Assembly: GCF_024502345.1 (NCBI RefSeq)
Contig: NZ_JALDNN010000003.1
Reading direction: 5' to 3' (one strand)
Source of the DNA: Escherichia coli
GTDB taxonomy: Bacteria; Pseudomonadota; Gammaproteobacteria; Enterobacterales; Enterobacteriaceae
DNA: 64,000 bases
Shown one piece after another: positions 43,188-64,000 of the stretch. Below the pieces are notes generated by a model. That model was not told where the DNA came from and did no database searches. It was given only the letters and a program-made list of their open reading frames with translations. The number at the start of each line of letters is the position of its first letter. Within the stretch, counting starts at the first letter, position 1. Both the position numbers and the translations under genes were made by a program.

Positions 43188-43208
43188 CTTCAATTGGAGT
43201 CCAACATC

Positions 43209-44117: not shown

Positions 44118-44219
44118 GGTGATGAAGGGGCCGACTGCTCCATCGGTCAGTCTCGCGATATTCGCAGTCGGCCCCAATAGATTCCCCTATTTTCACTATC
44201 TCATACGAGGCATATCACC

Positions 44220-45107
44220 ATGAATGAGCAAACATCGAATCCCAACGCGATCAACGAAGGCACGAACGAACAGGCCGCGGTAAGCAGCCTTCCTGCCAGA
44301 CCAGAGCCCAAGCCTGAAGTCGTCACGGAGGTACAGCCTGAGGTTCAGAAGGAAACGGACTCGCAGGCGGCAGACAAACGTAAACAAGTCCTCGATGAGG
44401 CCGTCTCGGCCTTGGCGCTGACCAAATCAGCGCTGGCGGCCCTGGACGAAAAAGAATCCGCGCGAGCACTGGCAACGCTGGCCGAAGTGACGGGAAAGCT
44501 GGAGCTGATCGTTGCACGCGAACCCACGCTCGCCCTGGCCCCCGTTGATGTGCGCACCATCGTGCACGACTTGTTCGCCAACACGGAAACCATTGAGGCG
44601 ATGACCGACGAGGCGCTGGATGCCCTCAAACATGGCGAGGTGCAACAGGCTCGCCACGTGCTGGCTTTGCTGGCCAGTGAAATCGTGATCACGGTCACCA
44701 ACATCCCTCTGGCGTCCTATCCCGCAGCCGTGAAGGCAGTCGTGCCGCTGATCGATCAGGGCAAGATCGAAGAAGCCAAAGCCGCGCTGCAGTCAGCGCT
44801 CAGCACGCTGGTCGAGGAGCGCAGCGTGCTTCCGCTGCCCGTCCTGCGTGCGAAGCTGCTCCTGAAGCGCGCCGAGCCTCTGGTAGAAGATGGTCAGCGC
44901 AGCGAAGCATCCAATGAGCGCCTGGAGACATTGTTGAACGAAGCCCGGCAGCAGTTGGAAATGGCAGAACTGCTGGGCTATGGAAAAAGGAAGGACTTTG
45001 AGCCCCTGTACGCTGAACTCAAGAAAATCAAGGAAAAGACGGGAGGGGGAGGCTTCGGAAAAGGCTGGCTCGATGAAGTCAAGGCAAAACTGTCCAGGTT
45101 GTTCTGA
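44220..45107 (+). CDS. yfdX: YfdX-family protein (copy 2)
   Basis: Paralogue of 43209..44117 with the same conserved blocks. Confidence 0.7.
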   Translation: MNEQTSNPNAINEGTNEQAAVSSLPARPEPKPEVVTEVQPEVQKETDSQAADKRKQVLDEAVSALALTKSALAALDEKESARALATLAEVTGKLELIVAREPTLALAPVDVRTIVHDLFANTETIEAMTDEALDALKHGEVQQARHVLALLASEIVITVTNIPLASYPAAVKAVVPLIDQGKIEEAKAALQSALSTLVEERSVLPLPVLRAKLLLKRAEPLVEDGQRSEASNERLETLLNEARQQLEMAELLGYGKRKDFEPLYAELKKIKEKTGGGGFGKGWLDEVKAKLSRLF

Positions 45108-47568: not shown

Positions 47569-48388
47569 GGCACTGTTGCAAATAGTCGGTGGTGATAAAC
47601 TTATCATCCCCTTTTGCTGATGGAGCTGCACATGAACCCATTCAAAGGCCGGCATTTTCAGCGTGACATCATTCTGTGGGCCGTACGCTGGTACTGCAAA
47701 TACGGCATCAGTTACCGTGAGCTGCAGGAGATGCTGGCTGAACGCGGAGTGAATGTCGATCACTCCACGATTTACCGCTGGGTTCAGCGTTATGCGCCTG
47801 AAATGGAAAAACGGCTGCGCTGGTACTGGCGTAACCCTTCCGATCTTTGCCCGTGGCACATGGATGAAACCTACGTGAAGGTCAATGGCCGCTGGGCGTA
47901 TCTGTACCGGGCCGTCGACAGCCGGGGCCGCACTGTCGATTTTTATCTCTCCTCCCGTCGTAACAGCAAAGCTGCATACCGGTTTCTGGGTAAAATCCTC
48001 AACAACGTGAAGAAGTGGCAGATCCCGCGATTCATCAACACGGATAAAGCGCCCGCCTATGGTCGCGCGCTTGCTCTGCTCAAACGCGAAGGCCGGTGCC
48101 CGTCTGACGTTGAACACCGACAGATTAAGTACCGGAACAACGTGATTGAATGCGATCATGGCAAACTGAAACGGATAATCGGCGCCACGCTGGGATTTAA
48201 ATCCATGAAGACGGCTTACGCCACCATCAAAGGTATTGAGGTGATGCGTGCACTACGCAAAGGCCAGGCCTCAGCATTTTATTATGGTGATCCCCTGGGC
48301 GAAATGCGCCTGGTAAGCAGAGTTTTTGAAATGTAAGGCCTTTGAATAAGACAAAAGGCTGCCTCATCGCTAACTTTGCAACAGTGCC
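47569..48388 (+). mobile_element. IS26 copy 2
   Basis: 820 bp with 14-bp IRs GGCACTGTTGCAAA / TTTGCAACAGTGCC; Tnp identical to copy 3 in translation. Confidence 0.95.
47632..48336 (+). CDS. tnpA: IS26 transposase Tnp26
   Basis: 234-aa IS6-family transposase beginning MNPFKGRHFQRDIILWAV. Confidence 0.95.
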   Translation: MNPFKGRHFQRDIILWAVRWYCKYGISYRELQEMLAERGVNVDHSTIYRWVQRYAPEMEKRLRWYWRNPSDLCPWHMDETYVKVNGRWAYLYRAVDSRGRTVDFYLSSRRNSKAAYRFLGKILNNVKKWQIPRFINTDKAPAYGRALALLKREGRCPSDVEHRQIKYRNNVIECDHGKLKRIIGATLGFKSMKTAYATIKGIEVMRALRKGQASAFYYGDPLGEMRLVSRVFEM

Positions 48389-48709
48389 GAAGAAACAACC
48401 GCGTACTGGATGATTACCCCACCAAAAGGGAAAATATTAGGCGTTGTCAAAGGGAAACCTGCGTGGGTTGATATTCCTCCGCCAACACAGGAAGAGCTGA
48501 TCCAGGTCGCTGAGCGTGAGAAAAAGCGACTAATTAATGTGGCTAACGACTTCATTAATAGTAAACAATGGCCTGGTAAAGCGGCAATCAAACGACTGAA
48601 AGACAATGAACTGGTGCAATACAATCTGTGGCTTGATTATCTTGATTACCTTGAATCAACAGACGCATCAACAGCACCTGATATTGACTGGCCTGAGATG
48701 CCAATATAG
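48389..48709 (+). pseudogene. phage tail-fibre assembly protein (Tfa) C-terminal fragment, 5' end removed by IS26
   Basis: C-terminal ...LWLDYLDYLESTDASTAPDIDWPEMPI matches the conserved Tfa C-terminus (..VDTSTAPDIEWP..) recalled from memory; reading frame abuts the IS26 end. Confidence 0.6.
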
Positions 48710-48819
48710 GAACCTTTTGTGGATTGAGATTTTTAATGTCAGCGAAGCTCTTCGTCAAAAGTGAAACTCTGATAACCTGGTTCTACTGACGAACAGAAGG
48801 ATAAGCAGGAGATCGCTTT

Positions 48820-49380
48820 ATGATTATTGGGTATGCACGAGTATCAAGTAACCATCAGGACACCGAGCTTCAGATGCAGGCGCTCAGAGCTGCTGGCTGT
48901 AAGTTAATTTTTGAGGAAAAGGCTTCTGGCCGTAAGACGAACCGACCAATTTTGAAGAAAGTGGTTGAGATGCTTGAACCCGGTGACGAGCTGGTCATCT
49001 GGAAGCTGGATCGTATCGGTCGCAATGTGCTGCACGCATTATTGACGTTTCAGAGCCTCGCAGAACGCAATGTTAACATCCGTTCTATTACTGATGGCGT
49101 TGACCTGAGTACCGCCAGTGGGCGCTATAACTTCCGTAATATTCTCTCTGCGGCACAATATGAGTCTGATCTGAATAGTGAACGCACTTTGGCGGGGTTA
49201 GCGGTTGCCCGCGCTAAGGGGAGGATTGGCGGACGTAAGCCTAAGTTCACTAATGAGCACTGGGATGCGTTTGAACGGGAAATTAAGTCCGGCTGCTCAC
49301 ATCGTGATATAGCTCTCAAATATGGAGTCGGCCTGTCGACTCTCTACAAACGTTATCCGGCTCAGCAAGAGCATCAGTAA
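48820..49380 (+). CDS. serine recombinase, DNA invertase family (Gin/Hin/Pin-like)
   Basis: 186 aa; MIIGYARVSSNHQDTELQ ... GRIGGRKPKF ... LSTLYKRYPA parallels Mu Gin (MLIGYVRVSTNDQNTDLQ ... GRIGGRPPKL ... LSTLYKKHPA). Confidence 0.85.
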   Translation: MIIGYARVSSNHQDTELQMQALRAAGCKLIFEEKASGRKTNRPILKKVVEMLEPGDELVIWKLDRIGRNVLHALLTFQSLAERNVNIRSITDGVDLSTASGRYNFRNILSAAQYESDLNSERTLAGLAVARAKGRIGGRKPKFTNEHWDAFEREIKSGCSHRDIALKYGVGLSTLYKRYPAQQEHQ

Positions 49381-49389
49381 ACACTCTTT

Positions 49390-49500
49390 GCGTTCATTTT
49401 TGCACTGTGCAGAATGTGTCTTTTTGGCACCTTCCGACAGTGCAAAATTTATCGCGTTTTTGTGCAAAAAAAATCGCCGCGCTACAAAACGTGTGCTATA
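49390..49500. repeat. cluster of TTTTGCAC-containing repeats in both orientations (possible Mu-like transposable-phage end sites)
   Basis: TCATTTTTGCACTGTGCAG, CGACAGTGCAAAATTT and GTTTTTGTGCAAAAAAAATCGC lie just downstream of the invertase gene; related motif recurs near 52410-52475; coordinates approximate. Confidence 0.35.
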
Positions 49501-49622
49501 CTTGTGCTCATGCGGTTGGATTTCCTATCCCCCCGACCCGCGCTGCGGCGGGCCGAAAAATCCCAGGGATGGGTTTTTTCGGTGTTTTCCTCGTTGGCAC
49601 ATTCAAGAGTAAGGAGCGTTCC

Positions 49623-50231
49623 ATGAAGCTGTATTACACCCCCGGCGCCTGTTCCATGGCCCCGCACATCGCCCTGCGCGAAGCCGGCCTGAAATTCGAC
49701 CTGGAAAAGGTCGACCTGATGACCAAGAAAACCGAATCGGGCGCCGACTTCACCGCCATCAATCCCAAAGGCTACGTGCCGGCGCTGCAGCTCGACAACG
49801 GCCAGGTGCTGACCGAGGTCGGCGTGGTGCTGCAATACATCGCCGACCAGAAGCCGGGCAGCGGACTGGCCCCGGCCGCCGGCACGCTCGAGCGCTACCG
49901 CCTGATGGAGATGCTGAATTTCATCTCCACCGAGCTGCACAAGAACTTCGGTCCGCTGTTCAACCCGGCGGCCGGCGACGACGCCAAGAAAGCAGCCATC
50001 GAGATGATCGGCAAGCGCCTTGGCTACCTCGACCAGCAGCTGGCCGGCAAGCAGTATCTGCTCGGTGACACCTTCACGGTGGCCGACTGCTACCTCGCCA
50101 CCATGCTCGGCTGGTGCCAGTACGCCAAGCTCGACCTGTCGGCCTGGCCGAACATCGGCGCTTACGCCGGCCGCGTGATGAGCCGCCCGGCGGTGATCGA
50201 GACGATGAAGGCCGAAGGCCTGATGGGCTGA
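49623..50231 (+). CDS. glutathione S-transferase
   Basis: ATG at 49623 with AAGGAG upstream; 202 aa; GST N- and C-terminal domain blocks (MKLYYTPGACSMAPHIALREAGL..., DTFTVADCYLATML); high GC. Confidence 0.8.
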   Translation: MKLYYTPGACSMAPHIALREAGLKFDLEKVDLMTKKTESGADFTAINPKGYVPALQLDNGQVLTEVGVVLQYIADQKPGSGLAPAAGTLERYRLMEMLNFISTELHKNFGPLFNPAAGDDAKKAAIEMIGKRLGYLDQQLAGKQYLLGDTFTVADCYLATMLGWCQYAKLDLSAWPNIGAYAGRVMSRPAVIETMKAEGLMG

Positions 50232-50314
50232 GGGCCACCTGCCGATGCGGCGCGGGTCACGCCCGCGCCGCACGGCGTCAATCCATACCCCCCATCGATT
50301 CCCCAGGAGCCCCC

Positions 50315-51106
50315 ATGCTCGTCGAACGCATCTGGACCGGTAATTCGTACCGCAACTTCAACTACCTGATCGCCTGCCCCGAGACCGGCGAAGCGCTGGC
50401 GATCGATCCGCTGGACCATGAAAAAACCCTGAACACGGCCAGGGTCAAGGGCTGGCAGATCACGCAGATCCTCAACACGCACGAGCACCACGACCACACC
50501 GGCGGCAACGCGGCCGTGGTGGCGGCCACCGGCGCCAAGGTGATCGCGCACCACAAGGCCGCGGGCAAGATCGAAGGCATGGACCGCGGCGTGAAGGCCG
50601 GGGACGTGATCAAGGTCGGCCGGCACATCGAACTGGAATGCCTGGACACGCCCGGCCACACGATGTGCCACATCTGCCTGCGCTCGCACACCGACGAGCC
50701 GGCGCTGTTCTCCGGCGACACGCTGTTCAACGCGGGCGCGGGCAACGTGCACTACGGCGGCAGCGTGGACGAGCTCTACACCACCTTCGTGCAGCAGCTC
50801 GCGAAGCTGCCGGAGAACACCCGCGTCTACCCGGGGCACGACTACATCGAGAACAACCTGCGCTTCACGCTCGCGCGCGAGCCCGGCAACGCGGCCGCGC
50901 AGGCATTGCTGCCGCGGGTGACCGGGCATGACCCGGCCACTTCGGTGGTCACCACGCTGGCCGAGGAGAAGCGCTTCAACACCTTCTTCCGCCTGGCCAG
51001 CCCCGAGGTGATCGCCAAGCTGCGCGAGAGCTTTCCCGAGCTGCCGGAACAGCCCGACGCGAAGACCGTGTTCACCAAGCTGCGCGAGCTGCGCAACCAG
51101 TGGTGA
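50315..51106 (+). CDS. MBL-fold metallo-hydrolase (hydroxyacylglutathione hydrolase / glyoxalase II-like)
   Basis: ATG at 50315 with CAGGAG upstream; metal-binding motif THEHHDHTGG; ~263 aa; high GC. Confidence 0.75.
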   Translation: MLVERIWTGNSYRNFNYLIACPETGEALAIDPLDHEKTLNTARVKGWQITQILNTHEHHDHTGGNAAVVAATGAKVIAHHKAAGKIEGMDRGVKAGDVIKVGRHIELECLDTPGHTMCHICLRSHTDEPALFSGDTLFNAGAGNVHYGGSVDELYTTFVQQLAKLPENTRVYPGHDYIENNLRFTLAREPGNAAAQALLPRVTGHDPATSVVTTLAEEKRFNTFFRLASPEVIAKLRESFPELPEQPDAKTVFTKLRELRNQW

Positions 51107-51151
51107 GCAGCGGCCGGCGCCGGCCCCTTACTTCAGCGTGAACCGCACGGT

Positions 51152-52165
51152 GTGCACTTCCATGTCTGCGCAGTCGATGGCGTGTTTGAGGAAGTGGCGG
51201 GCGAGGAGGGCGATGCTGCTGATGCAGCTTCTCAAAGCTCACCATCGCGCATCATCTTCCACCCCGCCACCGGCGTGACTGCGGATGCCGTGGGTCAGGT
51301 GCAGGCCAGCTTACGCAAACGCATCCTGCGCGCCTTTGTCGGACGGGGCCTGCTGGAGAGTTTCGAGGCCCAAGAGATGCTGGGCTACAAGCACAGCGGG
51401 TTTTCGGTGGACACCAGCGTGTGCATAGCGGCGCACGACCGCGCCGGGCTGGAGCGGCTGCTGCGCTACTGCGCCCGCCCGCCGTTTGCCATGGAGCGGC
51501 TGCGCAAAGCGGGCAGCGAGCTGGTCTACCGCTGCGCCAAGCAGCACAGCGAGCCCGGCAGCCTGCCTCACAACAAGCGCGGCGTAAAGGCCGATGAGAT
51601 CACCCTCACCCCGCTGGAGCTGATTGAACGTATCGCCAAGCTGGTGCCCCCGCCGCGCACGCACCGCCACCGCTACTTTGGCGTGCTGGCACCGAACTCA
51701 CCCTTGAGGCCTGCCGTCACGGCGCTGGCGCGTGATGCAGCGGTGAAACCGGCGCAGGTGCAAGCCGAGCCAGCCAGCACGGCTGCAGGCGAGGGCGCAC
51801 TTGGGGTAAGAAGCCCACTGCCAACCCAGACCGAGCCCGCCCAGCCGGTGCCACCCAAGCGCCCGGCGCACTATTTGTGGGCGGTGCTGATGGCCCGTAT
51901 CTACGAGGTGTTCCCGCTGCTGTGCCCCATCTGCGGCGGGCAAATGCACATCATCGCCTTCATCACACACAGTGCCGATATCCGCCAAATACTGGAGCAC
52001 ATCGGGGTGGAGACGGAGCCGCCGCACATCACCCCGGCACGCGGGCCGCCACTGTGGGACGAGTGCGACGCGCAAGCCGCAGAGGGCGTGGAGCCAGCCC
52101 CAGACTGGGATGAAGCGACCCAACCGGCCCCGGACTTCGAGGTCGATCAGCGCGTCAGTTGGTAG
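51152..52165 (+). pseudogene. IS91-family (rolling-circle, HUH) transposase, C-terminal fragment
   Basis: No credible N-terminus; retains blocks HFHVCAVDGVF, RYFGVLAPNSPLR and zinc-ribbon-like LCPICGGQMHIIAFIT followed by ILEHIGV..PP, as recalled for IS91-family transposase C-termini. Confidence 0.55.
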
Positions 52166-52399
52166 GGTGGCAACAGCGGTTAACAGTGGTTTTGCCAACG
52201 TTGCGAGGCAGCGCTGCGCCTGTCACCGCCAAAAACGGGTCATACCGAAAAATCTCGGGCAACTGGCTTTGAGAAATCAACCCAGCAGTCCCCTGTGTGC
52301 ATGCCTGAGACGCCCCAAACTGTGGGGAGGTGATCGTTTTTGCATGGGGGAGAGGTCTTGATAAAATGCCGGGAGGGCTTGCGGTAAGCGAGATTGAGA

Positions 52400-52480
52400 G
52401 AAAAACTGAGTTTTGCACTACTAAAAAAGAAATGAGAAAAAATAGCTATTTTTGCGTTTAATTTTGCACTTTTATGAAAG
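52400..52480. repeat. TTTTGCAC-containing direct repeats upstream of the Mu-like c/ner module (possible transposable-phage left-end sites)
   Basis: GAGTTTTGCACTACTAAAAAAGAAA and TAATTTTGCACTTTTATGAAAG about 45 bp apart; same core motif as the 49.4-kb cluster; coordinates approximate. Confidence 0.3.
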
Positions 52481-52582
52481 TCTTTAGATCCGTTTTAAAG
52501 ACCGTTTAAGCATTTATCAATGCCAGGCACTATACCGTATAGTAGGTTGGTATGTAAGAAGTTGGCTCTGACACCATCTAGC

Positions 52583-53215
52583 TTAAACGGCCTTCTTGTC
52601 TTCACTTGTTAGGCCAGATTCGGCTGCCTTCTGATCAAGTTCAGATGACCCTTTTTTCATCTGCTCATGTATTCGAAGTAAGCGCTCTTGTTCTGCTTGT
52701 GGTAGTTCTACCAGTACGCTGAGCGTATCGTTATATTTCGAGAGAAGATCTAGTACACCTCTAACCCCCATCCTTGCATAGATATCGATGAGTTTCTTTT
52801 TCTCATCGTGGTCTAATGCTTCAAAAAACATTGCCCATGTTAGAGATAAAAATTTGTCATCCTTAAGTGGCACTGCTGTAAATGCGAAAGGACTTGAGCC
52901 ATCGGTTAAACCATTCTCTATGATTGGTTGAGCCTGTCCATTGCTGCTATGAGCTTCATCCAACATGTAGACGCCATCCTTACCGGTCGCTAGCCACGCA
53001 AGGCTCACGTTTTCTATCTCTGAAATTTTCACCAGGATTTCCACACTCGGAGTGGCTGAACGTGCGAAGTAGTTGTTCAGCGTCGAGTATGGCAGGTCCC
53101 AATCTAGAGAAACTTTCCTGAGACTTCTCCCTTTGAAAAGAGACTTCATCCTATCGCGAATACTTTCTTTTCCTGATTGAGCAAAAGAAACATTCTCTTT
53201 CTTTACTGTATTCAT
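52583..53215 (-). CDS. Mu-like phage repressor c homologue (HTH)
   Basis: 210 aa; divergent from and adjacent to the ner-like gene as in phage Mu; C-terminus ...DKKAV as in Mu Repc (...KKAV); HTH-like N-terminal region. Confidence 0.55.
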   Translation of the reverse strand: MNTVKKENVSFAQSGKESIRDRMKSLFKGRSLRKVSLDWDLPYSTLNNYFARSATPSVEILVKISEIENVSLAWLATGKDGVYMLDEAHSSNGQAQPIIENGLTDGSSPFAFTAVPLKDDKFLSLTWAMFFEALDHDEKKKLIDIYARMGVRGVLDLLSKYNDTLSVLVELPQAEQERLLRIHEQMKKGSSELDQKAAESGLTSEDKKAV

Positions 53216-53397
53216 TTTCTTTTCCTTTTAACTGGTTGAAATAATTAATTAAAATTGATTTTCTCACCTGAGTTTTCTCACATGAGAAAAGAAAGAGCTT
53301 TATTTGCTTTACTCTTTCTCAAATTGGATCAATACTTATCCCAACGGATAACCCCTGCGGATTATCCGCCCGGTTAACTTTTTAGGGTAATCGAAGT

Positions 53398-53625
53398 ATG
53401 GAAATAAATGAAGTACAGCGTGACTGGCATCGCATTGATATTGTCGCCGAGCTGCACAAGCGTGGCGTCACTATGCGCGGCCTTTCCGCCAGCGCGGGAC
53501 TAAAACCCGACACGCTGAAAAATGCGCTGGCACGCTCTTATCCAAAAGGAGAGCGCATTATTGCAAATGCTCTCAATTTAGAACCCGCCAGTATCTGGCC
53601 AAGCCGTTACAACAAGGACCTGTGA
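53398..53625 (+). CDS. Ner-like DNA-binding protein (Mu Ner / Nlp family)
   Basis: 75 aa; RDWHRIDIVAELHKRGVTMRGLSASAGLKPDTLKNALARSYPKGERIIANALNLEPASIWPSRY parallels Mu Ner (RDWHRADVIAGLKKRKLSLSALSRQFGYAPTTLANALERHWPKGEQIIANALETKPEVIWPSRY). Confidence 0.75.
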   Translation: MEINEVQRDWHRIDIVAELHKRGVTMRGLSASAGLKPDTLKNALARSYPKGERIIANALNLEPASIWPSRYNKDL

Positions 53626-53742
53626 CATGTTCGTGACTGTTAACGAATTAGTTGGCGTCCCTGGACTGCCAACAACACAACAAGGACTGCGATACAGCCT
53701 TAAAAAAAGTGCAGGCAACTCCCCTGAACTGGTTCGCAAACG

Positions 53743-54562
53743 GGCACTGTTGCAAATAGTCGGTGGTGATAAACTTATCATCCCCTTTTGCTGATGGAGC
53801 TGCACATGAACCCATTCAAAGGCCGGCATTTTCAGCGTGACATCATTCTGTGGGCCGTACGCTGGTACTGCAAATACGGCATCAGTTACCGTGAGCTGCA
53901 GGAGATGCTGGCTGAACGCGGAGTGAATGTCGATCACTCCACGATTTACCGCTGGGTTCAGCGTTATGCGCCTGAAATGGAAAAACGGCTGCGCTGGTAC
54001 TGGCGTAACCCTTCCGATCTTTGCCCGTGGCACATGGATGAAACCTACGTGAAGGTCAATGGCCGCTGGGCGTATCTGTACCGGGCCGTCGACAGCCGGG
54101 GCCGCACTGTCGATTTTTATCTCTCCTCCCGTCGTAACAGCAAAGCTGCATACCGGTTTCTGGGTAAAATCCTCAACAACGTGAAGAAGTGGCAGATCCC
54201 GCGATTCATCAACACGGATAAAGCGCCCGCCTATGGTCGCGCGCTTGCTCTGCTCAAACGCGAAGGCCGGTGCCCGTCTGACGTTGAACACCGACAGATT
54301 AAGTACCGGAACAACGTGATTGAATGCGATCATGGCAAACTGAAACGGATAATCGGCGCCACGCTGGGATTTAAATCCATGAAGACGGCTTACGCCACCA
54401 TCAAAGGTATTGAGGTGATGCGTGCACTACGCAAAGGCCAGGCCTCAGCATTTTATTATGGTGATCCCCTGGGCGAAATGCGCCTGGTAAGCAGAGTTTT
54501 TGAAATGTAAGGCCTTTGAATAAGACAAAACGCTGCCTCATCGCTAACTTTGCAACAGTGCC
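53743..54562 (+). mobile_element. IS26 copy 3
   Basis: 820 bp with the same 14-bp IRs; interrupts a molybdoenzyme gene on its right side. Confidence 0.95.
53806..54510 (+). CDS. tnpA: IS26 transposase Tnp26
   Basis: Identical in translation to copy 2. Confidence 0.95.
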   Translation: MNPFKGRHFQRDIILWAVRWYCKYGISYRELQEMLAERGVNVDHSTIYRWVQRYAPEMEKRLRWYWRNPSDLCPWHMDETYVKVNGRWAYLYRAVDSRGRTVDFYLSSRRNSKAAYRFLGKILNNVKKWQIPRFINTDKAPAYGRALALLKREGRCPSDVEHRQIKYRNNVIECDHGKLKRIIGATLGFKSMKTAYATIKGIEVMRALRKGQASAFYYGDPLGEMRLVSRVFEM

Positions 54563-55246
54563 GTTTTACTTTCCCGCACAATCAACAAGCTGGAGCCGGG
54601 TTCTTGCACATTCCCGCAGGAGTTCAATCATAAGCGTTGGCTGGACCAGGAATTCAATGACGGAATGGCCAAAATGTTTGGCATCTCCTCATGGGATGAC
54701 TTACTGGATGGCCCGAAAAAAGCCATTTTGCCGAGTTCTGCGGCCTGGTATGACCGCAAATTTAAAACCCCCTCAGGAAAGTTTGAGTTCAGATCTGAGC
54801 TGTGTGAGAAAAATGGCCATACGGCGCTGCCGGAATACAAACCGGAGGCGAAAAGCACGCTGCCATTCCACTTGTTTACACCGCATGTGCAGTTCGGTAT
54901 CCATTCCCAATTTATCAACCTTGACTGGATGCAGGTCTTCTATCCGGAGCCGTTTGTCTATATGCATCCGATTTCCGCAGAAAAAAGAGGCATTGCCGAA
55001 AACGACCTGGTGAAAGTGTTTAACACCGTAGGTGAAGTAGAACTGCGTGCGAAGGTGACCGCTAACGTTCCGGAAGATTTCCTGGTGATGTACGAGGCGT
55101 GGTTCCCGAAAAGGAAATACAACGTTCAAAACGTGGTGGCAGATACCCCAGCCGATATGGGGTTGATGAAAACCGGTGCGCCAGGTGCGGCTATCCACAG
55201 TCAGTTTGCGGACATCATTTTGATCAGTAAAGGAGCAGCGGCATGA
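54563..55246 (+). pseudogene. DMSO-reductase-family molybdopterin oxidoreductase catalytic subunit, 3' fragment (5' part removed by IS26)
   Basis: Frame encodes the C-terminal molybdopterin-dinucleotide-binding region (...VKVFNTVGEVELRAKVTANVPEDFLVMYEAWFP...); followed by Fe-S and anchor subunit genes. Confidence 0.65.
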
Positions 55247-55800
55247 GACGCGCGTTTTTAGTTAATAGCGATAAATGCATCGGCTGCCGTGGCTGTGCAA
55301 TGGCGTGTAAGAGTTTTAACCAGTTGGAACCTGAACGTTTCTGGCGCTATGTCTACCCGCTGGATAAAGAAATTTATCCGCATGAAGAGCGGGCGTTCTA
55401 TTCGCTGGCCTGTAACCACTGCGAAAACCCGGCCTGTCTGGCGGCGTGTCCGGTAGAGGCGTACACCAAGCGTGAAGATGGTGTCGTGGTGCATAACCCA
55501 GAGCGCTGTATTGGATGCAAAAACTGTATCCGCAACTGCCCATACGGTGCGCCGCGTTTTAATGAGGAGACGAAGAAAGCGGAAAAATGCAGCATGTGCT
55601 ACGAGCGCCTTGATGTTGGTATGCAACCGGCTTGCGTGAATGCCTGTCCGGTAGGTGCGCTGACGCTTATCGATCTGGATGCCGATCCTATACCTGACAA
55701 TGCCGTACAGTATCCGCCGGGATTCCCGCGTATGCCGCAGCTTAATCCTGGCACGCGTTTTATCCTTGCGCGTCAGCCGAAGCAGCCGGAGGGTAATTAA
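55243..55800 (+). CDS. 4Fe-4S ferredoxin-type electron-transfer subunit (DmsB-like)
   Basis: Four Cys clusters (CIGCRGCAMAC, CNHCENPACLAACP, CIGCKNCIRNCP, CSMCYERL...CVNACP); start overlaps the upstream stop. Confidence 0.8.
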   Translation: MRRAFLVNSDKCIGCRGCAMACKSFNQLEPERFWRYVYPLDKEIYPHEERAFYSLACNHCENPACLAACPVEAYTKREDGVVVHNPERCIGCKNCIRNCPYGAPRFNEETKKAEKCSMCYERLDVGMQPACVNACPVGALTLIDLDADPIPDNAVQYPPGFPRMPQLNPGTRFILARQPKQPEGN

Positions 55801-56567
55801 TGGAAAAGTATGAACTTCCGCTGGTCATTTTTACCGTATTGAGCCAGATGTCGGTTGGGATCACGCTCATTCTGACGCTACGCACGCTGCAAGGAAAACT
55901 GGAAAGCAAACGCCTGTACTGGCTGGTAAGTGGGCTGGTTCTGGCGGTGGCGTCCGTTGCAGCGATCCTGCACCTTGCGCATCCGGATCGCGCCTACGAT
56001 GCCCTGATTAACCTGCAGCACGCCTGGCTGAGCCGTGAAATTCTTGGCGCCACCTTATACGGTGCGGCGGTCGGGGTGACGTTTTTGGCAAAAGGGCACA
56101 AAGCGCCAGCTGTTCTGGCCTCTGTTCTCGGTATCGCGCTGGTGGCGGTGCAGGGGATGACCTATGCTGCCCCGGCAATGGTGGCGATCGCCAACGGTCT
56201 GACAATGCTGTTGTTCTTTATCACGGTGTGGGTGATGGGGTGTGCGGCGATTCCACTGCTTAACCTTGCACCTGCCGTTGCCGCATTACGCCAGGGGATT
56301 GTTGTGTGTATGGCGGTCATGATCGCCGCGCCCATTATCTGGCTAAGCGGCGGCACCATCATGCAGATGACGGCGCATGCCTGGCTGACGTCGCCGCTTT
56401 ATCTGGCGAGTCTGGTGTGTCTGGCGGTGGCCTTTGTGCTAAGCCGTCAGGGAGAGCGTCGCGCAAAAGCGCTTTTTGTCCTGCTGTTTGTTGGCATATT
56501 CCTGAGTCGTCTGACGTTCTTTGGCGATACGATCAGCACCATCGTGAATATCGGTCATTTGTATTGA
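55800..56567 (+). CDS. DmsC-like membrane anchor subunit
   Basis: 255 aa, about eight hydrophobic helices; translationally coupled to the Fe-S subunit gene. Confidence 0.7.
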   Translation: MEKYELPLVIFTVLSQMSVGITLILTLRTLQGKLESKRLYWLVSGLVLAVASVAAILHLAHPDRAYDALINLQHAWLSREILGATLYGAAVGVTFLAKGHKAPAVLASVLGIALVAVQGMTYAAPAMVAIANGLTMLLFFITVWVMGCAAIPLLNLAPAVAALRQGIVVCMAVMIAAPIIWLSGGTIMQMTAHAWLTSPLYLASLVCLAVAFVLSRQGERRAKALFVLLFVGIFLSRLTFFGDTISTIVNIGHLY

Positions 56568-56636
56568 TCGTGAGGTAATAAAAACCCCTGTCAGGCGTTA
56601 ACCTGACAGGGGTTTTCTTTAGCGAATCAGTGGCTG

Positions 56637-57065
56637 TTAACGAACAACCAGCACTGGCAAAGTCGCGTGGCGGACAACGCTGGAAGCGTTTGAGCCGAGC
56701 AGATGGGTGCTGATTGATGGGTTACGCGACCCAATGACAACGACATCTGCATTCAACTCTTCACCCAACTCGTTGACCACATCACGGACACTGCCAAAGC
56801 GGACGTGTTGCTTAATACGGGAAGGATCGATGCTGAAGTGACCGACCATCGTTTGCAGACGGGTTTCCGCTTCGTGTTGCAGATGCTCTTCAAAACGACG
56901 GACATCGGCCGCAAAGCGGTGCAGGCTTAAGCTCGCTGAGCCTGGCAGCACATGCAGCAGATGGATAACCCCTTTATCCTGGGCCAGAAATTCTGCATGG
57001 CGAATAGCCTTGTCGCTCAGTTCCATTTCGAATACATCAACAGGCATTATGATTGTGTTGTACAT
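56637..57065 (-). CDS. uspG: universal stress protein UspG
   Basis: [30 protein letters not shown]...[18 protein letters not shown] closely matches E. coli UspG (YbdQ); AAGGAG 7 nt upstream of this ATG; synteny with rnk. Confidence 0.85.
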
Positions 57066-57248
57066 AAACATTCTCCTTGTCATTACATGAACACATAACA
57101 GCATAGTATTAAAAATGATTCTGTCAGTCACGACACAGATTTATGTTTTGCGAACAGGAAAGAAAGCGAGGAGCAGGGAGATCTAACCGGAAAGAGGATG
57201 CAGATGCATCCTCTGTAAGATAAAGCGAGTGGCTTTGATAAGACAGAG

Positions 57249-57659
57249 TTAGCGCAGGTAGTCGCCTGCAGCTTCAGGCTGGTACTCAAGCTCAATAACT
57301 TCGAGGTGCGTTGAGGTCCCGCCTGGCAGTTCCCAGTGAATGGTATCACCAACGCGCAGCCCCAAAAGTGCAGCGCCGACAGGTGCCATTACCGAAAGCT
57401 GTGTGCTGCTGTCAGTCATAGTGGCCGGATACACCAGGGTACGCACACGGACTTCGCCATCACTCAGATTGCGGAATTTCACGCGGCTGTTCATGGTCAC
57501 GACATCGTGCGGCATGGTTTCTGGAGAACACATTTGGGCACGATCCAGCTCGGCGTTAAGGGCGTCGGCAATCGGTAAACCAGCAAACGCAGGTTGCTCC
57601 AACAGGCGGTCAATGCGTTCCGCATCGAGGTCGTTAATGATGATAGTTGGTCTGGACAT
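57249..57659 (-). CDS. rnk: regulator of nucleoside diphosphate kinase Rnk (GreA/GreB family)
   Basis: 136 aa; [44 protein letters not shown] closely matches E. coli Rnk. Confidence 0.9.
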
Positions 57660-58238
57660 TTATTACTCCATGTCGTCGATACTGCGGGTGCGCAGGTAAA
57701 TAATCCCAAAAGAAAACCCTCACCGTCAGGCGGCAAGGGTTTAGCTTTTATGATGATACTGAGACTTACCCCATGTTTGAAGTGATTTAGTTCACATTCA
57801 GGCAAATCATCAATATTGTCGCGTATGGTGTAATGTCAGTCAGTTAACGAACCTAAGGTAATAAATCTGTTGCCTCCGTCGCATTGCTACGTTCACCTTA
57901 TGTTATTCACTTCTCTGAAACCATCCTACCTGTGAACGTGTTAAGGGTACTATCGCCGTACCCTTAACAATCCCGGCGGGAGCCTGGGTTGCAAGGGAGG
58001 CGGCGGTGAGCCTCCCTTGCTCGTTCACGGGTATCAGTGCTTCAGAGAAGTGATACCGCTGAGGTGAACGGAACCCTGAGCCGGGATCACATGTTCCCTA
58101 TAATGCTTAACTGACAAGCATTACGCGTATGGTGTGATTTTAGCCGAAAAACGTGATCGTTCTCCAATTTGCATTATGCTTTTTAAGCGCTCGCTGCGGG
58201 CGCGTCAAACAACTCAGTGTTCCGCGACAGGAGATCTC

Positions 58239-59069
58239 ATGAGCCAGTACGACAAACTTACCTTGAAAGACGGCAGCTATTTGCATTTTAAAGATTGGGG
58301 AAGTGGACAGCCCATTGTCTTCAGTCATGGTTGGCCGCTGACGGCAGATGCGTTTGAGGATCAGATGTTATTCCTCGGGTCGAAAGGATTTCGTGTGATC
58401 GCCCATGACAGGCGTGGGCATGGGCGTTCGGCCCAACCCTGGGATGGTCACAATATGGAGCAGTATGCTGACGATCTGGCTGAACTTACCGCGCATCTCA
58501 ATCTTAAAGATGCCGTCCATGTCGGACACTCTACCGGCGGCGGGGAAGTGGCGCGGTATATTGGCCGCCATGGAACGCAGCGGGTCGCAAAAGCGGTGTT
58601 AATTGGCGCGGTGACGCCCATTATGATCAAGACTGACTTTAATCCAAATGGCGTGCCGAAAGAGGTATTCGATGGCATCCGTGAGGGGGTTGTGAACGAT
58701 CGCGCCGCCTTTTTCTATGAATTGACCGCTGCATTCTATGGCTACAACCGTCCTGGCGCAAAAGAGTCGAAAGCCGTCAGGGAAAGTTTTGTTGAACAGG
58801 GTTTACAAGGTTCCATCAAAGCGTTGTACGACTGTATCCACGCGTTTTCGGAAACAGATCTGCGTGAGGATCTCAAAAAGATGACCATCCCGACGCTGGT
58901 GATCCACGGTGATGACGATCAGATTGTCCCGTTTGAAACCTGCGGAAAGGTCGCGGCGGAAATACTGCCTGATTCGCAGTTGAAGGTATATGTCGGCGGC
59001 TCGCATGGCATTTGCACCACCCATAAACAACAGATCAACGGTGACCTGCTCAACTTTATTCAGTCGTAA
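58239..59069 (+). CDS. alpha/beta-fold hydrolase (non-haem haloperoxidase/esterase-like)
   Basis: ATG with AGGAG upstream; nucleophile elbow GHSTGGG; ~276 aa. Confidence 0.7.
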
Positions 59070-59165
59070 TCGTTGGCAGATTGTTCTACGCTGATCTTCT
59101 TTTTCCAGGGGGATGAGCGAAGCATAATTTGTGCTGCGCTGACGTTAACTTCAACAGGGAACGCT

Positions 59166-59789
59166 ATGTATTTCTATCAACCGTCACAGGGACACGGCTT
59201 ACCGCATGACCCGCTAAATGCCATCATTGGACCGCGCCCGATTGGTTGGATTGCGTCGCGTGACGGCAATGGTCGGCACAATCTGGCACCATACAGTTTC
59301 TTTAACTGTTTTAACTATCATCCGCCGATTATCGGTTTCGCCAGCAGCGGCTGGAAAGACAGCGTGCAGAATATTATTGAAACCGGTGAATTTGTCTGGA
59401 ACCTGACGACTCTTGAGCTGGCCACTGCGATGAACGAAACGTCAGCCAGCTTGCCGCACGGTGAGGACGAGTTTTTTGCCGCCGGGCTTAGCAAGGCAGA
59501 TAGCCGGATAGTCAACGTGCCGCGCGTGGCGCAAAGCCCGGTCAATTTTGAGTGTCGCTTATCGCAAAGCCTGCAACTAACTACCGCTGATGGCTCACCG
59601 GTTGATACCTGGCTGGTATTGGGGGAAGTGGTGGGCATCCACATCGATGAAACGCTCCTGGAGGACGGCATCTATCAGACGGCGAAAGCGAAGCCGGTAC
59701 TGCGCGCAGGTGGGCCAACGGCATATTATTCGATCAGTGAAACACACCGTTTTGATTTAGTTCGCCCGGACGCCCGAGCAAAACGCTAA
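59166..59789 (+). CDS. flavin reductase-like domain protein
   Basis: 207 aa; N-terminal region IGPRPIGWIASRDGNGRHNLAPYSFFN typical of flavin-reductase-like FMN-binding proteins. Confidence 0.6.
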   Translation: MYFYQPSQGHGLPHDPLNAIIGPRPIGWIASRDGNGRHNLAPYSFFNCFNYHPPIIGFASSGWKDSVQNIIETGEFVWNLTTLELATAMNETSASLPHGEDEFFAAGLSKADSRIVNVPRVAQSPVNFECRLSQSLQLTTADGSPVDTWLVLGEVVGIHIDETLLEDGIYQTAKAKPVLRAGGPTAYYSISETHRFDLVRPDARAKR

Positions 59790-59830
59790 GCTTACGGACC
59801 GACGCCAGCTTGCAGCGTCGGTCGCAAGTT

Positions 59831-60637
59831 TCAATATCCCACTTTGTCGATAATAAACTGTTTACCGCAGATACCTGGATGCGGTTGCGGTAAGAATGAC
59901 TGTGCAGATAACGTCTGGTTGATGTTGTCGGCTTTCAGGGATAACTGGATCTCAGTGAGATACGCCGGATTGCCGTGGCAGCTTAGCTTCACAGCTTTGA
60001 CGTTCTCTTTGCCCCAGCTTTTGGCAACTGCGGCGTCAAATGCGTTACGGCTGACAGTTTTGCCGTAGTTTTCCGCCAGGAATTTGCCCACCTCGCTGTT
60101 CTTAACCTCATTATTCAGCCGTACCATCGTGCCAAAGTACGCGTCGGGATCAAAACCGAAACACGCGCCATGTTTGGCATACTCGTAACGTTCCAGACAG
60201 GATCTCCCTCCAGCGCCGGGCATTACGGCGCTGAGTTTTGCTGCGCTTTCCAGCGACAGCCCGGTTTCGGGGGCCGCGCATTTACGGCTGGCACGTGCTT
60301 CAGGCAGGTTGGGAATAGGGCGAGTCGCGCAGCCAAAACGCATCCAGCGGCGGTTGTCGACTCCACGGGCGGCAATGGATTTAGGCAGGCTGGGCCATAA
60401 ACCGTGAACGGTCAGGAAATCCGCTTTGTCTGCGCTCTCTTTTTGTAAACGACATTCGTCAGGCTCCTGACGATTACGCTCGTGTTGGCTCTGACAAAAT
60501 CCGGTTTGCCAGGAGAGGGCCAGCACGTAGCTGTCAAAATCAGTGTATTGTTTTGCCTGAAGTTCATCGGCCTGAGCTGCAGAAACTGGCAGCAGAAGCG
60601 CTGCCAGTAATGAAGAATAACGCCATGTTGATGTCAT
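59831..60637 (-). CDS. rna: ribonuclease I (RNase T2 family)
   Basis: 268 aa with signal peptide; RNase T2 catalytic block FLTVHGLWP; synteny rnk ... rna-citT as in E. coli. Confidence 0.85.
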   Translation of the reverse strand: MTSTWRYSSLLAALLLPVSAAQADELQAKQYTDFDSYVLALSWQTGFCQSQHERNRQEPDECRLQKESADKADFLTVHGLWPSLPKSIAARGVDNRRWMRFGCATRPIPNLPEARASRKCAAPETGLSLESAAKLSAVMPGAGGRSCLERYEYAKHGACFGFDPDAYFGTMVRLNNEVKNSEVGKFLAENYGKTVSRNAFDAAVAKSWGKENVKAVKLSCHGNPAYLTEIQLSLKADNINQTLSAQSFLPQPHPGICGKQFIIDKVGY

Positions 60638-60747
60638 GATGATTTCGGATACTTATATAAATTCTGAATATCATCTATTTAATCATAAAAAATGCCAGTC
60701 AGGTTTAGCTGACTGGCATCATTTTCATCAGGTGTGAACCGAAATGA

Positions 60748-62211
60748 TTAGCTCCACATCGCCAGAATCGGCCAGCCGACCAGCAGAAGCATAGAGATGT
60801 AGATAACGCCGAAGATAGCACCCAGACGCCAGTAGTCTTTGGACTTCACATAACCACAGCCGTAGATGATAACGCCAGGGCCTGTTGCATATGGAGTCAG
60901 ACAGCCCATGATACCGATGGACAGTACCAGCAGGATACACAGGTGTTCCATCGGCACGCCCGGGATACCTTTACCGACAGCCAGAATAACCGGCAGCATG
61001 GTGGCAGTGTGTGCAGAAAGGCTGGCAAACAGGTAGTGAGCAAAGTAGAACACCAGCACCAGCACGATTACGGTCGCGTTAGGCGAGAAGCCTTCCAGGT
61101 GCGTGCTCATGGTGTTGGCGAACCAGTCGATGAAGCCTGAACGGGTTAAACCATTCGCCATAACGACCAGCGTGGCGAGGTTAACCAGGGTGTTCCATGC
61201 GCTGTTATAGCGGGTAATGTCTTTCCACGGTACCACATGCAGCGCCAGCATCAGGGAGACAGCAAGCAAACCCACTGCGGTTGCATCAATCAGTTTACCA
61301 CCGAAGACCCACAGGCCCAGGCTGAGCAGAACCAGACCGATCAGCGTTATCTCTTTACGGGTCAATTTACCCATGCCTTTCAGTTCATCACCGGCCCATG
61401 CGGCAACTTCAGCACTGTGAGTGACCTCTGGTTTGTACAGAACGTATGACAACCACGGAGCAACGATCAGCAAAATAATACCAACCGGCAGGAAGCTGAG
61501 GAACCATTGCAGCCAGCTGATTTGAATACCGGCAATTTTGTTGACGAATTCCAGACCCAGTACGTTTGGCGCAGCGCCGGTCACGAACATAGAGGAGCTC
61601 AGGCTGGTACTGATTACCATCATCCACATCAGGTATCCGCCGATACGGCGCGCGGAAGGATCGTTCGGGAATGATTTAAACAGCGGCGGCAGGTTTTTGA
61701 TAACCGGGAATACGGTACCACCGGTACGCGCGGTGTTAGACGGTGTAAACGGCGCCAGCAGAATGTCGATGATAACAATCGCATAGCCCAGCGTCAGGGT
61801 GCGTTTACCCATGAATTTCACCAGGAACAGCGCGATACGACGACCCAGACCGGTGACTTCATAACCCAGTGCGAAGATAAACGCACCAAACACCAACCAC
61901 ACGGTGGTGCTGGAGAAGCCCGCCAGACCCCATTTCAGCGCTTGCTTACCCGCTTTAAATGCCGGGTCGGCCAGTTCTGAAGCATCAAACAGCAGATAGT
62001 TGCTGCCGATAACGCAGATCGTTACGGCGATAAAGCTGATCGCTGTTGCCGGAATTGGCTCCAGGATCATACCGACGATCATCGCCACAAACACGGCAAA
62101 GTAGTGCCAGGCCTGTGGAGGCATTCCATCAGGGACGGGGATAAGAAACATGACGCCCATTACGACCAATGGGGCCAGTAACTTCCATATTTTATCTTTT
62201 GCTAAAGACAT
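60748..62211 (-). CDS. citT: citrate:succinate antiporter CitT
   Basis: 487-aa polytopic transporter; N-terminus and overall pattern match CitT; adjacent to citG/citX/citF. Confidence 0.9.
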   Translation of the reverse strand: MSLAKDKIWKLLAPLVVMGVMFLIPVPDGMPPQAWHYFAVFVAMIVGMILEPIPATAISFIAVTICVIGSNYLLFDASELADPAFKAGKQALKWGLAGFSSTTVWLVFGAFIFALGYEVTGLGRRIALFLVKFMGKRTLTLGYAIVIIDILLAPFTPSNTARTGGTVFPVIKNLPPLFKSFPNDPSARRIGGYLMWMMVISTSLSSSMFVTGAAPNVLGLEFVNKIAGIQISWLQWFLSFLPVGIILLIVAPWLSYVLYKPEVTHSAEVAAWAGDELKGMGKLTRKEITLIGLVLLSLGLWVFGGKLIDATAVGLLAVSLMLALHVVPWKDITRYNSAWNTLVNLATLVVMANGLTRSGFIDWFANTMSTHLEGFSPNATVIVLVLVFYFAHYLFASLSAHTATMLPVILAVGKGIPGVPMEHLCILLVLSIGIMGCLTPYATGPGVIIYGCGYVKSKDYWRLGAIFGVIYISMLLLVGWPILAMWS

Positions 62212-62236
62212 GTGTGTGATTCTCCGGAAAGGATCT

Positions 62237-63142
62237 TTAATTGTGATAATGATGAACTTGTGAAATCTGAGCTAAGAACCAGGTGACGATCAGCAGATCG
62301 GCGCAGCCTCCGGGACTGAGGTTGCGTTCAATGCACTGTTGGTCGAACTGGTGTAGGTATTCGAGATCGGCAGGGGTACGAATCCCCCCTTGCTGCATCA
62401 GGGCAGTGGCCTGCTGCTGTAGCCAACGCAGACCTTCTGCGCCGCCACGTGAAGCCACGTTGGTGTCGCCGTTGATAGACATCAGCAGCAATAAAGTGTC
62501 GAGTAACGCCAGTTCAGGGTCGCGGCCCTGAGTCAGCAGTGCGCGGTAGTGCGGCAGGGCATGCTGGATGACTAGCGGGTATCCCGCTTCGGCTTCGCCC
62601 CGTGCGCCGGTTAATCCCAGTTGCTTATAAAGACGTTGGCCTGCCGTGAGTTGTTGATTGTTCTGGCGCAGTTCGCGCTCGGTCAGACCACGGCAAAATG
62701 TCGCTGCCGTAGAGCAAATGGTTTCAGCGGTAACAGTTAGTTGGAGCTGGTGCAGGCGGCCAATGGCGGCGCACAGCAGGCCCAGAGAAAAGATGCTTCC
62801 TTTATGAGTGTTCACCCCGGCGGTGGCGCGGAACATATCAGCTTCGCAGGCCATGCCCAGCGGGCGCAGTCCTTTCAATACATCCTCAGGCGACAGCTGT
62901 GCGCTAAACGCCCCATATTCAATAAAACGTGGCAGCCAGGCCTGAATAGCCTCGGCGCTGCGATGAAAATCTTCCAGCGCCATATCTTTATGCGCGCCGT
63001 TGTTAATACGATCTACCAGACCGGGTTTGGGTGACAGGTTGACTTCAGTCAGCATGGCGCGCCACGCGAGCGTTGCGTAAGCATCAGGCAGATCCAGAGG
63101 AAGGACTGCATTATTGGTTGATGTTGCGGGAATCGGCATCAT
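62237..63142 (-). CDS. citG: triphosphoribosyl-dephospho-CoA synthase CitG
   Basis: Start taken at [11 protein letters not shown] (track ORF extends 24 codons further upstream); blocks [48 protein letters not shown] match E. coli CitG. Confidence 0.85.
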
Positions 63143-63665
63143 GCAGCAGTGCCTCCATCTGAGTGAGTAAGTCGGAAAGTGCGTGGGTTTTACCCCGCGC
63201 ACAGTCGGCAGCACTTTGCTCGCACAGCAGACAGCGGCGGGCAGGGAGTGCGAAATGACGCCGGGACAGAATTTCCCCTTCAGGGGTCAGGACATCGATG
63301 TCCCATAGCCGTCCCAGCGGGTGTGAATGCTCAAGTTCAATCGTGGCGAGCTTGAGGTCGTGGGCCGGAGCCTCAATAGACAAAAGACCTTCTGGACCGC
63401 TGGCAGAAACCAGCGCTGTTTGCTCCCTGACAATCCAGGCTGATTGTTCCGCCAGCGCGAGCAAGGCGGTTACGCCGTGATTAAAGATGCGACGGGTTAA
63501 TGCGCTGTCTTTAATCGGACCCGGTGCGACTACGGTGAACGAGACCAGTGGCGCAGAGTGGCGTGTCAGCCAGTCCTGTTGCCTTGCTTGTCTCTTATCG
63601 CGGCTGGCGAGCAGCTCGGGAATCGAAACCGCGTGTTGGGTGGCGAGTTCAGGGAGCAGGTGCAT
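63111..63665 (-). CDS. citX: apo-citrate lyase phosphoribosyl-dephospho-CoA transferase CitX
   Basis: 184 aa between citF and citG, overlapping the citG start; position and size fit CitX. Confidence 0.85.
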
Positions 63666-63668
63666 GGC

Positions 63669-64000
63669 TTATTCCTTCACCTGATGCACAACGTCAATCA
63701 CTGAACCGTCGCGATAACGCACAACGGCAATCACGCGGTCAGTGAATTCGATAGCGCGTGGCTGACCGGTGAGTTGCTGTGTACGTTCGCGCAGCCATTC
63801 AATGGACACCACTTTCATACCGGCTTCTTTCAGTCGTTCTGCCAGTTCCGGACGTGCAGGGTTGACGGCGATACCATGGTCAGTGACCAGAATGTCAACG
63901 CTGGAGCCAGGGGTTACGCAGGTCAGCACGTTATCAACCAGCGTCGGGATGCGTCCGCGAACCAGCGGTGCGACGATGATGGAAAGCGCTGCGGCCACAG
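63669..64000 (-). CDS. citF: citrate lyase alpha subunit CitF, C-terminal part (5' end beyond window)
   Basis: Open to the window edge on the minus strand; stop at 63669 just upstream of citX; C-terminal sequence consistent with CitF. Confidence 0.8.
   Translation of the reverse strand, partial: VAAALSIIVAPLVRGRIPTLVDNVLTCVTPGSSVDILVTDHGIAVNPARPELAERLKEAGMKVVSIEWLRERTQQLTGQPRAIEFTDRVIAVVRYRDGSVIDVVHQVKE

Follow-up and report, generated by a model that had tools for sequence, protein, structure and literature searches.

Near the right end of the 64,000-nucleotide stretch of DNA analysed here (the window), the 3' part of an operon for a Mo-bisPGD enzyme begins where a copy of IS26 ends, which raises the question of whether the operon was truncated in place on a chromosome or was brought to this site, already truncated, as part of a larger captured segment. 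The first reading was adopted in an earlier note on this DNA, in which a chromosomal operon had been decapitated by IS26 at the point where an accessory block meets conserved backbone. The decapitation is confirmed, and the chromosomal setting is probably wrong. We assign a probability of about 0.8 to the reading that the truncated gene is the left edge of a 16.5-kb Citrobacter freundii segment captured between two direct copies of IS26 on an IncHI-type conjugative megaplasmid.

The IS26 copies of the window and the genes that follow the junction are as follows.

11787-12606, minus strand: a further IS26 copy
47569-48388, plus strand: IS26 copy 2, at the end of the heat-resistance-locus region and forming the left boundary of an interposed 5.35-kb unit
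53743-54562, plus strand: IS26 copy 3, 820 bp, complete, with tnp26 reading toward the remnant
54563-55246, plus strand: 3' remnant of the gene for a Tat-exported Mo-bisPGD catalytic subunit, codons 530-756 plus stop
55243-55800, plus strand: intact Fe-S subunit gene, 185 aa (Fer4_11, E 1e-27; four Cys clusters)
55800-56567, plus strand: intact DmsC-family membrane anchor gene, 255 aa (DmsC PF04976, E 7e-18)

The IS26 copy adjoining the remnant has the 14-bp terminal inverted repeats GGCACTGTTGCAAA at both ends and an intact 234-aa Tnp26 open reading frame, as expected of IS26 in the IS6 family, and the identical sequence is annotated in RefSeq as IS6-like element IS26 family transposase WP_001067855.1. 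Its pairwise identity to the other two window copies is 99.5-99.9%, with 99.9% for the copy at 47569-48388. Comparison of its 8-bp flanks, CGCAAACG on the left and GTTTTACT on the right, which are unequal, showed that a target-site duplication is absent, and neither duplications nor reverse-complement 8-mers linking the three window copies were found. With a Mu-like transposase gene on its left and the reductase gene on its right, this IS26 copy joins two unrelated DNAs instead of being inserted into a single one. The lost target-site duplications are compatible with several successive IS26 events, without documenting each of them.

On the right side the junction is exact, as codon 530 of the catalytic subunit gene begins directly after the last IS26 base. 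Translation of 54563-55246 is free of stops for 227 residues and then ends at a stop codon. These residues match positions 530-756 of the C. freundii catalytic subunit, a protein of 756 residues, with 100% identity, and the C. freundii chromosomal sequence reads GGAAATCGCC before and GTTTTACTTTCC after the breakpoint. The loss of all but the last ~220 codons, as described in the earlier note, was thus close to the 227 found, and the comparison with intact genes that it proposed has placed the breakpoint at codon 530. The single domain in the remnant is the C-terminal Molydop_binding domain (PF01568, E 5e-20), and of the four features by which Mo/W-bisPGD catalytic subunits were recognised, the window copy keeps only this one; its score against the DmsA/YnfE model TIGR02166 is 52.5 bits, under the cut-off. 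An in-frame TAA lies inside IS26 at 54545 and the earliest in-frame ATG of the remnant is at 54665. Read from these positions, the product of the remnant could be a domain-IV fragment of at most 193 aa.

What has been lost can be seen from C. freundii, where the gene order is dsbG, ahpC, ahpF, a TorD/DmsD-like chaperone gene (184 aa), the catalytic subunit gene A (756 aa), the Fe-S subunit gene B and the anchor gene C, with uspG and rnk adjoining the 3' end of the operon on the opposite strand. By this comparison, the operon in the window lacks its promoter and chaperone gene, and its catalytic subunit gene is short of 529 codons. The earlier statement that the promoter and the first cistron had been lost is correct as to the loss, but the first cistron is the chaperone gene and the catalytic gene is the second.

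With one genome scanned per species, the operon was also found in Citrobacter youngae, C. werkmanii, C. portucalensis, and C. braakii, and in Superficieibacter, Kluyvera, Pseudenterobacter, Enterobacter, Raoultella, and others. Where the frame is uninterrupted at these loci, it encodes a twin-arginine signal, NRRSFLK, and the N-terminal Cys motif CPRNCYDTCS...C. All four catalytic-subunit features are present in the intact Citrobacter homologues, with the Tat signal RRSFLK, the same Cys motif and the domains PF04879, PF00384, and PF01568. These systems resemble the E. coli DmsABC and YnfEFGH enzymes, which are DMSO and selenate reductases, in combining a Tat-exported Mo-bisPGD subunit that bears an N-terminal Cys cluster with a four-cluster Fe-S subunit, a DmsC-type anchor and a TorD/DmsD-like chaperone. 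However, the Citrobacter catalytic subunit has 756 aa compared to about 810 in DmsA/YnfE, with the last 227 residues kept in the window, and the C. youngae orthologue scores 288.9 bits against TIGR02166, for which the cut-off is 777.7. Judged by these model scores, the Citrobacter enzyme is not a DmsA/YnfE orthologue and belongs to an uncharacterised clade; the best solved relatives of the intact protein are Rhodobacter DMSO reductase, TorA, and Thermus polysulfide reductase.

To the right of the operon, the window continues with the following genes.

56637-57065, minus strand: uspG (NCBIfam equivalog, E 1e-91; RefSeq annotation of the identical plasmid sequence)
57249-57659, minus strand: rnk, with its leader (Rfam) at 57705-57813, minus strand
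58239-59069, plus strand: alpha/beta hydrolase gene
59166-59789, plus strand: flavin reductase gene
59831-60637, minus strand: rna (ribonuclease I)
60748-62211, minus strand: citT
62237-63139, minus strand: citG
63111-63665, minus strand: citX
up to 64000, minus strand: 3' part of citF, running off the window

Profile matches and the annotation of the plasmid described below bear out the uspG, rnk, rna and cit genes that the earlier note had named downstream of the operon. This DNA is of C. freundii origin: over the 9,441 bases of 54560-64000, 5 positions differ from chromosome L023 and 3 from chromosome L025 of this species (99.95-99.97% identity). Such an identity favours an alternative in which the window comes from a Citrobacter chromosome with an IncHI plasmid integrated through IS26, the catalytic gene having been truncated in situ and the DNA on the right being backbone of the host. 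This alternative also has a mechanistic basis, since the capture is expected to pass through an IS26 cointegrate with the chromosome, which would look identical over 64 kb.

The evidence that separates capture from this alternative comes mainly from NZ_LR890350.1, a circular conjugative plasmid of 300,631 bp with an IncHI1A replicon and a MOBH relaxase, carried by E. coli MSB1_9D from a rectal swab in Australia. The entire window is colinear with this plasmid at 99.9-100% identity, except between IS26 copies, as set out below.

1-12606: equals 32018-44622 of NZ_LR890350.1
12607-31669: equals 54238-73300 of NZ_LR890350.1
31569-48388: equals 73200-90019 of NZ_LR890350.1
48389-53742, no strand assigned: IS26-bounded interposed unit with genes for a glutathione S-transferase (GST) and a hydroxyacylglutathione hydrolase (gloB), an ISCR/IS91-type transposase fragment and the left end of a Mu-like prophage
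53742-64000: equals 95127-105385 of NZ_LR890350.1, with 1 mismatch in 10,259 bases

The lone mismatch in the last block is a SNP in rna at position 60174, and the junction of IS26 with the remnant is identical in the window and the plasmid. With 1 mismatch in 10.3 kb, the plasmid is barely closer to the window than the chromosomes are with 3-5 in 9.4 kb, so identity alone is non-discriminating and, from such figures, cannot be expected to separate a plasmid from a Citrobacter chromosome with an integrated plasmid. More informative are positions 58799, 59579, and 63782, where the window has the allele of the plasmid and not that of the closest chromosomes, which argues against the integrated plasmid.

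The structure of the segment in NZ_LR890350.1 argues in the same direction. There it measures 16,483 bp and runs from the remnant through uspG, rnk, rna, citT, citGXFEDC, dpiB, and dpiA to a truncated dcuC (dcuC'), of which ~745 bp are followed by a third, directly oriented IS26; the two copies that bracket it (L021, 21929-22748 and from 39232) are in direct orientation. In contrast to a stretch of host backbone, the segment is thus closed on its far side by IS26 inside dcuC. C. freundii chromosomes (L037-L039) have an intact dcuC, after which come pagP, cspE, crcB, and tatE. The window itself ends in citF, ~7 kb short of the predicted second IS26, and its right boundary is read from NZ_LR890350.1. 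As in the window, the segment in the plasmid is 99.95-99.97% identical to C. freundii chromosomes. By comparison, the rnk region of E. coli itself is only about 81.5% identical to it, indicating that the segment is foreign cargo in its E. coli host. Among 5,426 complete E. coli genomes, a single one carries the segment, on NZ_LR890350.1. The "conserved backbone" of the earlier note is accordingly most likely this C. freundii segment, and the presence of the uspG-rnk-rna-cit block is no evidence for a chromosomal window or a Citrobacter host.

The left part of the window is plasmid DNA. Positions 1-48388 match several large plasmids at 99.9-100% and contain an IncHI-type backbone (a Tus-like protein, Hha/YmoA, and an integrase) together with a Tn7-like element bearing a heat-resistance locus with clpK, ftsH, sHSP20-GI, and yfdX. 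No chromosomal DNA was found in the 54.5 kb to the left of the junction, which also speaks against a plasmid integrated in a Citrobacter chromosome. Between this region and the remnant, the counterpart of the IS26 at 47569-48388 is present in NZ_LR890350.1, but the unit that follows it differs. The window has the GST/gloB/ISCR/Mu-like unit, in which the left end of the prophage retains the repressor, ner, and the first 38 codons of the transposase before being cut by IS26, whereas the plasmid has another unit of 5.1 kb with a ferritin-like gene, IS5, and RelE/HTH. Moreover, at the site of the lone IS26 at 11787-12606 of the window, NZ_LR890350.1 contains additional inserts bounded by IS26. The GST/gloB/ISCR/Mu-like unit also occurs in other resistance regions (L029, L031, and OW968028.1), where it does not lie beside the remnant, and its placement beside the remnant is absent from PLSDB and from the complete E. 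coli genomes searched. That the exact arrangement of the window is missing from PLSDB as a plasmid is a point in favour of the integrated plasmid, and the swapped neighbouring 5-kb unit fits with IS26-mediated exchange.

Both ends of the segment recur in public sequence data. A 190-aa open reading frame called within the remnant was found on a metagenome contig of 16,750 bp (L042), and there are 19 similar places for this reading frame besides that contig. The first 151 bp of L042 come from the IS26 end, and the contig agrees with window positions 54412-64000 at 100.000% identity. The reading frame of the truncated dcuC takes its GTG start from the IS26 terminus, which makes it diagnostic of the far junction. 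In the collection it was indexed in 76 blocks, always at a contig end, and the sizes of its contigs peak at 10-20 kb (e.g., 16,560 and 16,764 bp), with none above 50 kb. The far dcuC'-IS26 end is therefore observed in many contigs as well as in the plasmid. Dozens of public samples contain short-read contigs of ~16.6-16.8 kb with the junction-specific reading frames, which is the assembly product expected of a 16.5-kb unit with a repeat at both ends, and the breaking of contigs of 16.56-16.76 kb in IS26 at both ends implies the second bracketing copy. The contigs that carry the junction reading frames are thus bounded on either side, and no long chromosomal contig is among them. Taken with the complete plasmid, this makes the Citrobacter chromosome with an integrated plasmid unlikely.

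The same contigs bear on an artefactual origin of the junction, in which plasmid and chromosomal contigs would have been misjoined by the assembly through the 820-bp IS26. Misjoins are classically caused by IS26, of which the window has three copies. However, an independent complete assembly has exactly this junction, although its E. coli host is without such a chromosomal locus, and many independent short-read contigs cross the IS26 end into the remnant, so that a chimera is barely credible. A limited literature search returned no description of the 16.5-kb unit or of NZ_LR890350.1.

The earlier note also asked where the 5' half of the gene had gone. The ahpCF genes, the chaperone gene, and codons 1-529 have left no trace within the 64-kb window, and searches of 72,556 PLSDB plasmids and 5,426 complete E. 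coli genomes, including that of the host of NZ_LR890350.1, did not find the 5' part of the operon either. As the 5' part was found nowhere in these searches, the gene was not split by an insertion with its other side remaining nearby, and the 5' part was not taken along.

Capture of the segment could be explained by two steps that rest on established IS26 biology (Harmer and Hall). An IS26 of the plasmid would first have formed a cointegrate with a C. freundii chromosome at the catalytic subunit gene, and a second IS26 event, or recombination between two IS26 copies, at dcuC would then have released the plasmid together with the chromosomal DNA lying between the two sites. The donor would have retained the promoter, the chaperone gene, and codons 1-529. 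A later exchange between IS26 copies may have swapped the neighbouring 5-kb unit, as a result of which the difference between the window and the E. coli plasmid would be limited to that unit. The captured segment adjoins the heat-resistance locus of the plasmid, and its structure is most likely that of a pseudo-compound transposon rather than an in situ lesion of a chromosome.

Pseudo-compound transposons and translocatable units formed by IS26 are known, for example those that carry blaSHV with flanking Klebsiella pneumoniae chromosomal DNA on plasmids. The present unit resembles them in its direct IS26 copies, the truncated chromosomal genes abutting the ends of the IS, the lack of a target-site duplication around the unit, the exchange of neighbouring units between relatives, and its location in an IS26-rich region of a conjugative plasmid. 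Unlike units of the blaSHV type, its passenger is a housekeeping and metabolic block of 16.5 kb from C. freundii, including the citrate lyase cluster, without a resistance gene. In addition, whereas the left IS26 alone is visible in the window, both copies are seen in NZ_LR890350.1.

The two genes that escaped truncation could still be thought to have a function. As the earlier note held, both are intact. The start of the Fe-S gene overlaps the stop of the catalytic subunit gene in an ATGA, and its 185-aa product has four Cys groups of the DmsB type, CIGCRGCAMAC, CNHCENPACLAACP, CIGCKNCIRNCP, and CSMC...CVNACP, although it scores 143 bits with the equivalog model TIGR02951, below the cut-off of 214 bits. 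The anchor protein scores 65.4 bits with PF04976 against a gathering cut-off of 22.3. By exact-protein look-up, both products are identical to C. freundii proteins, the label of the exact Fe-S protein being multispecies Enterobacteriaceae. The ribosome-binding sites upstream of the B and C starts, AAAGGAG and GGAGGG, are both good, tnp26 is co-directional with the two genes, and the interval that separates it from them shows no convincing terminator. From this arrangement, read-through from tnp26 into the remnant and the B and C genes is possible. A promoter is another matter: in 54300-56700, no sigma-70-like sites were found compared to 2.1 expected in shuffles, and a hybrid outward promoter of IS26 was rejected because the TTGCAA of its terminal repeat (-35-like) is without an acceptable -10 at a distance of 16-18 bp. 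The outward-facing IS26 promoter that had been suggested as a source of expression is thus unsupported by the sequence.

These properties bear on the idea that the Fe-S and anchor genes have been kept because they are functional, for instance together with a catalytic subunit of the new host and under an IS26-derived promoter. Their intactness, the good ribosome-binding sites, and the co-directional tnp26 without an intervening terminator are in line with it. However, the products are identical to those of the donor, so the intactness reflects recent capture and not selection, and no sigma-70-like promoter spans the junction. In the E. coli DmsAB paradigm, the Fe-S subunit is exported by hitch-hiking on the Tat signal of the catalytic subunit. 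No signal peptide was found in the 185-aa sequence, which leaves the Fe-S subunit without an export signal of its own. The catalytic gene is, moreover, sporadically inactivated in Citrobacter chromosomes, which suggests a dispensable system. Retention for function is on these grounds very improbable. By analogy with E. coli, the intact B and C genes would be unable to form a working reductase even if transcribed, because the Mo site and the Tat signal would come from the missing catalytic subunit. Within the captured segment, the remnant and both intact genes are passengers.

The mechanism of such a capture is well established and is unchallenged by the present case, which is ordinary IS26 biology with an unusual passenger. 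It adds to the transfers by IS26 of sizeable non-resistance chromosomal blocks between genera via a conjugative megaplasmid, the cargo moved here being citrate fermentation genes and a two-component regulator. Since the sequence itself is already public and annotated, the main value of the case lies in annotation, in which the remnant should be treated as a pseudogene located at one end of a passenger segment bounded by IS26. It is doubtful that the 16.5-kb unit is a selected metabolic or regulatory cargo rather than a neutral hitch-hiker. If it were, the complete citrate-fermentation cluster citCDEFXG-citT and the two-component system dpiBA might aid new hosts of the IncHI plasmid, for example in anaerobic citrate use, and an extra dose of DpiBA, which has been linked to beta-lactam-triggered SOS induction, would be another possible route of advantage; selection for either would explain the recurrence of the unit in dozens of samples.

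A minor observation concerns the naming of the intact enzyme. Only short fragments were returned by the protein search, probably because the search is word-indexed, and some of these short matches are named "anaerobic selenocysteine-containing dehydrogenase", presumably a generic label for such matches. A selenocysteine reading was considered in view of this name and of an in-frame stop in the catalytic gene at one locus (L001), and was rejected: that stop is a TAG nonsense codon, and 15 of the 16 species-representative loci reaching the gene start have an uninterrupted frame of ~756 codons.

The catalytic subunit gene of the reductase operon, which in the window is cut by IS26, has been independently inactivated in some Citrobacter chromosomes. 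In L001 (positions 1-1968 of that locus) it carries a TAG nonsense codon and a 1-bp deletion at codon 598, and stop codons are found at codon 558 in L040 (8303-10573) and at codon 531 in L043 (5310-7580). Most species representatives, as well as L022-L025, have an intact gene. In some members of the C. freundii complex the reductase operon may be dispensable and undergoing decay.

Over 10,259 bases, the window and the colinear conjugative E. coli plasmid NZ_LR890350.1 differ at a single position, 60174, which lies inside rna; the window has T there, the plasmid C. Because all C. freundii chromosomes and the metagenome contig L042 share the window allele, the substitution is private to the plasmid.

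The region near rnk contains a MITE-like element with 18-nt terminal inverted repeats (GTAATGTCAGTCAGTTAA and TTAACTGACAAGCATTAC), flanked on both sides by the direct repeat CGCGTATGGTGT.

57830-58124: MITE-like element, about 295 bp long, located between the leader of rnk and the hydrolase gene

Some Citrobacter chromosomes (L001 and L040) lack the element, and it is present in reversed orientation in C. youngae L002 and in L043.

On the other side of the IS26 copy that cuts the catalytic subunit gene lies an IS26-bounded unit of three parts, a unit also carried by other resistance regions.

48389-53742: three-part IS26-bounded unit
52583-53215, minus strand: Mu-like prophage repressor
53398-53625, plus strand: Mu-like prophage ner

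The first part is a block of 66% GC, encoding a glutathione S-transferase, a hydroxyacylglutathione hydrolase and a fragment of an ISCR/IS91-type Y2 transposase, with 99.6-99.9% identity to plasmids of Burkholderia, Comamonas and Azonexus. The second part, with the repressor and ner, is a Mu-like prophage's left end, and the third consists of the first 38 codons of the Mu-type transposase gene, which IS26 truncates at 53742/53743.

The window also carries a heat-resistance locus, which is accompanied on the plasmid by a Tn7-like tnsABCDE module and is matched at 99.5-100% by several plasmids of E. coli, Klebsiella and Salmonella Senftenberg.

about 26600-47560: heat-resistance locus with clpK, cls, ftsH, sHSP20-GI, yfdX1/2, hdeD-GI and a mechanosensitive channel gene

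In another genome (KE702178.1, locus L032, 10001-20633), a complete Mu-like prophage encoding the same repressor protein as that of the window directly adjoins a heat-resistance locus; therefore, the association of the Mu-like left end with the heat-resistance locus may be older than the IS26 rearrangements of the window.

The first IS26 copy has an IS3-family element a short distance upstream, marked by a ribosomal frameshift element.

10706-10823, plus strand: IS1222-type ribosomal frameshift element (Rfam RF00383, 157 bits)
11787-12606, minus strand: first IS26 copy

At this IS26 copy NZ_LR890350.1 differs from the window in having about 9.6 kb of additional IS26-bounded inserts, which encode a thermonuclease, a cupin, a chlorite dismutase-family protein and a plasmid rpoH.
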